Assembly (NCBI RefSeq): GCF_003334815.1
Contig: NZ_QOWO01000143.1
Length of the DNA: 213 nt
From: Escherichia coli
GTDB lineage: Bacteria > Pseudomonadota > Gammaproteobacteria > Enterobacterales > Enterobacteriaceae
Direction: 5' to 3' (one strand)
Part shown: positions 1 through 101 of the stretch, piece after piece
Numbering within the stretch: position 1 is the first letter of the stretch
Layout of the letters: every line of letters starts with the position of its first letter
Position numbers and translations under genes: made by a program
The notes under the pieces: generated by a model
The model's input: only the letters and a program-made list of their open reading frames with translations
Told to the model about the DNA's origin: nothing
The model's database searches: none

Positions 1-76
1 CTCTCATATAGCCACACTTGTAGACCGAAAATCACGTTATACGATCATCCTTAGACTCAGGGGCAAAGATTCTGTC
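1..76 (+). mobile_element. IS30 internal fragment (IS30 family), truncated by the window at its 5' side and interrupted at 76/77 by another IS
   Basis: Plus-strand frame 2 (codons from position 2) translates to SHIATLVDRKSRYTIILRLRGKDSV, which matches from memory an internal segment of E. coli IS30 transposase InsI (roughly residues 239-263 of about 383). The match stops abruptly at position 76. Confidence 0.85.
2..76 (+). pseudogene. insI: IS30 transposase InsI, interrupted internal CDS fragment (25 codons); the in-frame TGA at 77-79 is supplied by the terminus of the adjacent IS
   Basis: 25 consecutive codons identical to the recalled InsI sequence (...ATLVDRKSRYTIILRLRGKDSV). The native protein continues SVNQALTDKF..., but here the frame reads V-stop followed by unrelated sequence. 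No start codon or N-terminal region is in the window. Confidence 0.8.
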
Positions 77-101
77 TGAACCGCCCCGGGTTTCCTGGAG
101 A
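77..101 (-). repeat. Terminal inverted repeat (IRR) of the IS3-family element, about 25 bp; outer terminus at position 77
   Basis: Sequence TGAACCGCCCCGGGTTTCCTGGAGA directly abuts the point where IS30 homology ends. IS3-family IRs begin with 5'-TG. The inner boundary (about 101) is approximate because the partner IR is not in the window. Confidence 0.7.

Follow-up and report, generated by a model that had tools for sequence, protein, structure and literature searches.

The insertion sequence IS629 (isoforms IS1203 and IS3411), present in Escherichia coli O157:H7, is bounded by inverted repeats starting TG and has the terminus TGAACCGCCCCGGG… In the relatives considered here its full copies are 1310 bp long, carry the overlapping frames orfA and orfB, linked through a programmed -1 frameshift and coding for a DDE (rve) transposase, and are accompanied by a 3-bp duplication; the published range of IS629 duplications is 3–4 bp (PMC3271280). 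Members of the IS3 family transpose by copy-out-paste-in via a circular intermediate (bioRxiv 10.1101/2023.06.07.543989). IS30 is 1221 bp long and its gene insI codes for a transposase of 383 aa. The two elements are nested in E2348/69 (IS629 at IS30 nt 1071), in O157:H7 (nt 1117) and in many IncF plasmids, pLHM10-1 among them (nt 881), with duplications ACT, AGA and CAG, respectively. These nests represent the same element pair and the same type of event as the locus described here at other insertion points and, since the insertion points differ, they are independent events. Closest to our locus are the nested IS30::IS629 structures of 67-1 (locus L002 in what follows), ETEC1749 (L001), ETEC4085, rl0044 and the draft genome GCA_021534865 (L005), which share its breakpoint and orientation and have a 1310-bp insert with a GTC duplication. 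E2348/69 and the O157 copy are referred to as L015 and L016.

The stretch of DNA analysed, 213 bases in all and hereafter called the window, splits cleanly at 76/77, with insI of IS30 on the left and the end of an IS629/IS1203-type element on the right; no Rfam RNA family was found in the window. Positions 1–76 (plus strand) are an internal fragment of insI that corresponds to IS30 nt 794–869 with at most one synonymous difference (T/C at position 52), and that is identical or near-identical to the IS30 copies of L001–L017. Translation in frame 2 gives SHIATLVDRKSRYTIILRLRGKDSV followed by a stop, which is InsI through V269 (…GKDSV); the fragment covers codons S245–V269, position 1 being the last base of codon 244. 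Its last three bases, GTC at 74–76 (IS30 nt 867–869), are the target triplet, in the place where the relatives have the left copy of their 3-bp target-site duplication. The first three bases of the incoming element, TGA at 77–79, form an immediate in-frame stop for insI on the plus strand, so that the product is 269 aa long. Unlike intact IS30, the copy in the window thus has its gene cut after codon 269 and is presumably inactive.

Only one end of the incoming element is present in the window. Its IRR, TGAACCGCCCCGGGTTTCCTGGAGA, occupies positions 77–101, and the same terminus is found in L001, L002, L004 and L015–L017. Positions 119–213 on the minus strand are the 3' end of orfB/orfAB: bases 213 to 122 code for …RRLLERLGHTPPAEAEKAYYASIGNNDLAA, the last 30 codons, with the stop at 121 to 119, and the gene leaves the window at its edge. 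This peptide forms the C-terminal end of OrfB from an element of the IS3 family, and the 3' boundary coincides with the end of the RefSeq CDS annotated as 'IS3 family transposase, programmed frameshift' in L001 and L002. In the same two loci RefSeq annotates a programmed-frameshift IS3-family transposase for which Pfam rve matches are recorded, and OrfB scores 315 bits against NCBIfam NF033516, where the cut-off is 160. In L002, 1260 nt separate the IRR arm from the opposite end, with which it pairs at 92% over 26 nt, one flanking base included. All ten full unmodified IS629-type copies that were measured are 1310 bp long, and the element of the window is visible for 137 nt. Over that length it matches the O157 copy, which RefSeq labels 'IS3-like element IS1203 family transposase', at 135 of 137 positions; the end of OrfB reads …LLERLGH…GNNDLAA in the window as against …LLGRLGH…GNDDLAA in O157. 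Across the whole element the O157 copy and the copy found at this site in ETEC1749 show 6 differences in 1310 positions, and the L001 and L018 copies show 6–8 mismatches from the O157:H7 copy. Judged by its sequence, the element in the window is of the IS629/IS1203 type and is seen for its last 137 nt.

The initial annotation had placed a junction between insI and an IS629-like element at positions 73–79, and this is borne out. The heptamer TGTCTGA (73–79) straddles the breakpoint, which is fixed at 76/77 because the IS30 copies in L003 and L015–L017 continue unbroken past position 76 (GATTCTGTC-TCAGTAAATCAG) and because the IS terminus TGAACCGCCCCGGGTTTCC adjoins unrelated left flanks at other loci. 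A megablast search of 5,426 complete E. coli genomes matched thousands of separate IS30 and IS629 copies, and the junction was recovered as a single unbroken match only in the chromosomes of 67-1, ETEC1749, ETEC4085 and rl0044. The fifth carrier, GCA_021534865, came from a search for proteins identical to the truncated InsI of 269 aa. The junction is therefore real, recurring in four complete chromosomes and one draft, and is neither a chance match nor an assembly artefact.

What lies at the far end of the element was rightly taken beforehand to be the only feature that can separate simple insertion from rearrangement; the window alone cannot decide. A query for the right junction gave single-piece matches in the same four genomes only, each 1310 bp from the left junction, and the complete E. 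coli genomes included none with the left junction alone. The IS copies at this junction in L001 (L001:4077-5386) and L002 (L002:4038-5347) are each exactly 1310 bp long, and their far end reads …CCGGGGCGGTTCA|GTCTCAGTAAATCAGGCTCTTACCGAC. Taken with both flanks, the arrangement in the relatives is ..GATTCTGTC|TGAACC…GGTTCA|GTCTCAGTAAATCAGG, and L005 is built alike. Beyond the far end insI resumes in five of five carriers with GTC TCA GTA AAT…, that is (V)SVNQALTDKF. Thus the outcome predicted for a simple insertion, with a 1310-bp IS, a GTC repeat and a resumed insI, is seen in every one of the five genomes that carry the exact junction.

Several details of that prediction need adjusting. Of the two repeats proposed, GTC or TGTC, the first is seen in all five carriers and the second is excluded, since the far flank reads A|GTCT, which rules out a 4-bp duplication. 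The resumed peptide SVNQALTDKF was correctly foreseen, but the break in the gene follows codon 269, and on the 383-aa protein the reading picks up again at 269/270 instead of about codon 264. The far end had been expected about 1.3 kb beyond position 213, and it lies instead at window-equivalent position 1386, 1173 nt past 213. GTC stands on both sides of the IS in L002 and also in L006, another locus with an IS629-family element at this point. In L001 and L005 the left repeat is GTT (L001:4074-4076, L005:4805-4807) and the right repeat is GTC; the GTT of the ETEC lineage is a point mutation that arose after insertion, and the window retains the unmutated GTC.

Removal of the IS and one GTC from L001, L002 and L005 restores an open 383-aa InsI within a 1221-bp IS30 that has both of its inverted repeats. 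The reconstructed protein, which starts MRRTFTAEEK, scores 276 bits against the NCBIfam IS30-family transposase model NF033563 (cut-off 80), and the reconstructed inverted repeats show 88% pairing over 26 nt.

We consider it quite probable that the molecule from which the window derives carries a simple insertion of an IS629/IS1203-type element into a resident IS30, its far end being taken from the relatives. In such an event a 1310-bp IS3-family element would have inserted by ordinary transposition after IS30 nt 869 (insI codon V269), antiparallel to insI transcription. The circular form would be pasted into a staggered cut of the target and repair of the cut would duplicate 3 bp, here GTC, the repeat arising because integration occurs into a 3-bp staggered cut. 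The window would then represent the left junction only, comprising the 5' part of IS30, GTC and the right end of the IS. Its continuation would consist of 1173 more bases of the IS to ..CCGGGGCGGTTCA, GTC again, and then TCAGTAAATCAGGCTCTTACC; after the second GTC the remaining 352 bp of IS30 would follow, coding for SVNQALTDKF… up to the stop and ending with the right inverted repeat of IS30. Put as expected sequence, a simple insertion predicts that the IS ends ..TTTCCGGGGCGGTTCA (or TTCCCGGGG…) and is followed by GTCTCAGTAAATCAGGCTCTTACCGAC from window-equivalent position 1387, with CCAGGATTTCCGGGGCGGTTCAGTCTCAGTAAATCAGGCT as the 40-mer across the right junction.

The main alternative is that the left insertion is the same but that its far side was rearranged later, either by homologous recombination between two IS629 copies or by a transposase- or IEE-dependent adjacent deletion. 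Rearranged far ends are on record for this pair of elements: of 10 distinct IS629-in-IS30 junctions examined, 3 are followed on the far side by DNA other than IS30, namely those of L004 (nt 865), L017 (nt 936) and L021 (nt 879). Adjacent deletions that arise through IEE-dependent excision of IS629 range in size from a few nt to over 40 kb (PMC9943667), and in O157:H7 genomes matching 3–4 bp repeats accompany only 21 of 47 IS629 copies (Rump et al., PMC3271280). The window also has no exact sequenced match and perhaps comes from a separate lineage. However, the nested structure is intact in all five genomes that have the exact junction, and the left junction never occurs without the right one in the complete E. 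coli collection, and we regard a later rearrangement as unlikely, at roughly one chance in a handful. The choice between insertion and adjacent deletion offered by the initial annotation was in this respect incomplete, recombination and IEE-assisted excision or deletion being missing from it. Were the repeat absent, recombination of two IS629 copies or IEE-assisted excision/deletion would be a more likely cause than a classical adjacent deletion. That the window joins two repeat families only through chimerism or mis-assembly, with no genuine junction, is highly improbable: it is 213 bases made up wholly of two high-copy repeats, of the kind that yields short, error-prone short-read contigs, and its exact sequence is absent from every collection searched, but four complete chromosomes and a draft reproduce the breakpoint to the base and have the matching right junction and duplication, and a random chimera would not recreate an exact insertion site together with an IS terminus.

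The window is identical to none of the relatives, having 3 mismatches to ETEC1749 and 5 to 67-1. As its insert 67-1 has another IS629 variant, which is mismatched to the ETEC copy at 64 of 1310 positions, the differences being spread over the whole element. The 137-nt IS tail of the window is, by comparison, identical to L018, a complete 1310-bp copy on a metagenome scaffold (ENA ERZ28602160) which has 2 mismatches to the ETEC1749 copy. This identity suggests that the window may belong to, or lie near, the ETEC1749 lineage and may carry the same or a closely related insertion. The presumed OrfB, which is the ETEC1749 protein with one G→E exchange, has exact matches only in two short metagenome scaffolds, L018 and L019, and no IS30 flank is present on either. 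The 296-aa and 404-aa fusion versions of this presumed protein are not on record, nor is an exact match to the junction-spanning minus-strand ORF of 38 aa. Records of the 269-aa truncated InsI cover 83 contigs, and the 24 of these that were examined gave no exact match to the window. A single-piece match at 100% was likewise absent from complete E. coli genomes, PLSDB plasmids and phage records, and exact junction patterns were absent from GTDB species-representative genomes, IMG/VR and JGI metagenomes. The record of this IS variant on only two short scaffolds is a hint that the window, with its 213 bases, could likewise be a short contig formed at a junction. The L018 scaffold consists of exactly one whole IS, which fits a repeat-collapsed short-read assembly.

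The consequences for IS30 can be read from the truncated product. Precomputed Pfam matches for the 269-aa InsI are to HTH families only, with the N-terminal helix-turn-helix domains kept, and no match to the integrase core (rve) is recorded for it. This pattern fits a predicted loss of the catalytic core, and the interrupted IS30 copy has presumably lost its activity, except where a transposase supplied in trans acts on it. The same 269-aa InsI is produced by three incoming ends, namely the right end of IS629, the left end of IS629 and an IS66-type end (GTAAGCG…), because each incoming element brings an immediate stop codon. The locus is a nested pair of two well-known E. coli insertion sequences, which is already known biology and nothing new in kind. 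The clean insertion in the relatives shows only that IS30 was inactivated by ordinary IS629-type transposition, which matters little beyond annotation, although IS-in-IS junctions of this sort are useful as lineage markers and account for the breaks that short-read assemblies show there.

The IS30 copies of the carriers lie in differing chromosomal contexts. No matching 2-bp duplication is found around them at L001:3158-3207 / 5742-5790 or at L002:3119-3168 / 5703-5750, and in both loci the IS30 copy lies between fragments of different IS3-family elements. The lack of matching 2-bp repeats and the presence of different IS3 fragments around IS30 imply that these IS islands were reshuffled. A common left flank of IS30 is present in L001, L004 and L015, which carry IS629 at different positions. 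We also observed that several different IS3-family elements repeatedly have IS30 a few bases past the A-run in their programmed-frameshift window (ATATTAAAAAA[A/G]GC…). This holds for the left flank in L002 (L002:3149-3168), in L006, L010, L011, L013 and L017, and in L007, L008 and L012, and for the right flank, in inverted form, in L001 (L001:5742-5760) and L015 (L015:4242-4260). It suggests that the frameshift-window motif is a favoured target of IS30.

Position nt 869 of IS30 appears to have received an IS629-family element more than once. The ETEC variant, which is O157-like, and the 67-1 variant, which is about 5% divergent, both lie there in minus orientation with GTC, and their 64 differences over 1310 positions extend from nt 60 to nt 1297. 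A third variant (L006:4808-8387, pLHM10-1-like) occupies this position in plus orientation; it likewise has the GTC repeat, and it contains a group II intron. The three insertions at nt 869 are apparently independent, to go by their sequences and orientations. A second site, nt 1071 (ACT), appears to have been hit twice, by the E2348/69 element (L015:2779-4088) and by that of pAMSC2 (L020:2079-3388) and some 20 similar plasmids; these two elements show 53 mismatches and lie in opposite orientations. We considered in-situ inversion and gene conversion as sources of the same-site hits and rejected both, as the variants differ throughout the element and conversion cannot flip orientation. For the junction in pOkiPb01684, which is 4 bp shorter, slippage at TCTGTCTG was considered as the origin. 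Since the IS there is mismatched to that of ETEC1749 at 51 of 1310 positions, an independent insertion is more likely than slippage.

These repeated hits raise the possibility that IS629-family elements have preferred triplets in IS30 that are reused in either orientation, a proposal that we put forward tentatively and regard as doubtful. In the literature no recognisable hot spot has been reported for IS629. Span arithmetic on four BLAST tables suggests some 40 distinct minus-orientation junction positions across the whole of IS30, and because of this number a few same-site coincidences are expected by chance, so that a hot spot is only suggestive. Were it true, it would contradict the published view and would be the first concrete target preference for IS629, and this stretch of IS30 would provide a natural substrate for studies of target choice by IS3-family transposases. 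An apparent bias in orientation in the first BLAST search proved to be an artefact of a query that contained the IRR alone; with the IRL end in the query, the opposite orientation turned up.

Within about 25 bp of the window site, IS30 has further IS629-type ends at nt 865, 879, 881 and about 888 and, at nt 868/869, the end of an IS66-family element (GTAAGCGTCAACGG). The loci that define the cluster at nt 865–889 are L004:3034, L021:1887, L003:3089 and L007:4808, with H302 and H303 placed by span only, and part of this set is biased by the protein look-up, which selects products of exactly 269 aa. In two loci a group II intron with a 507-aa reverse-transcriptase ORF (Pfam RVT_1 and GIIM) splits orfB (L006:5668-7900, L009:2592-4706), giving a three-level nest of an intron in IS629 in IS30.
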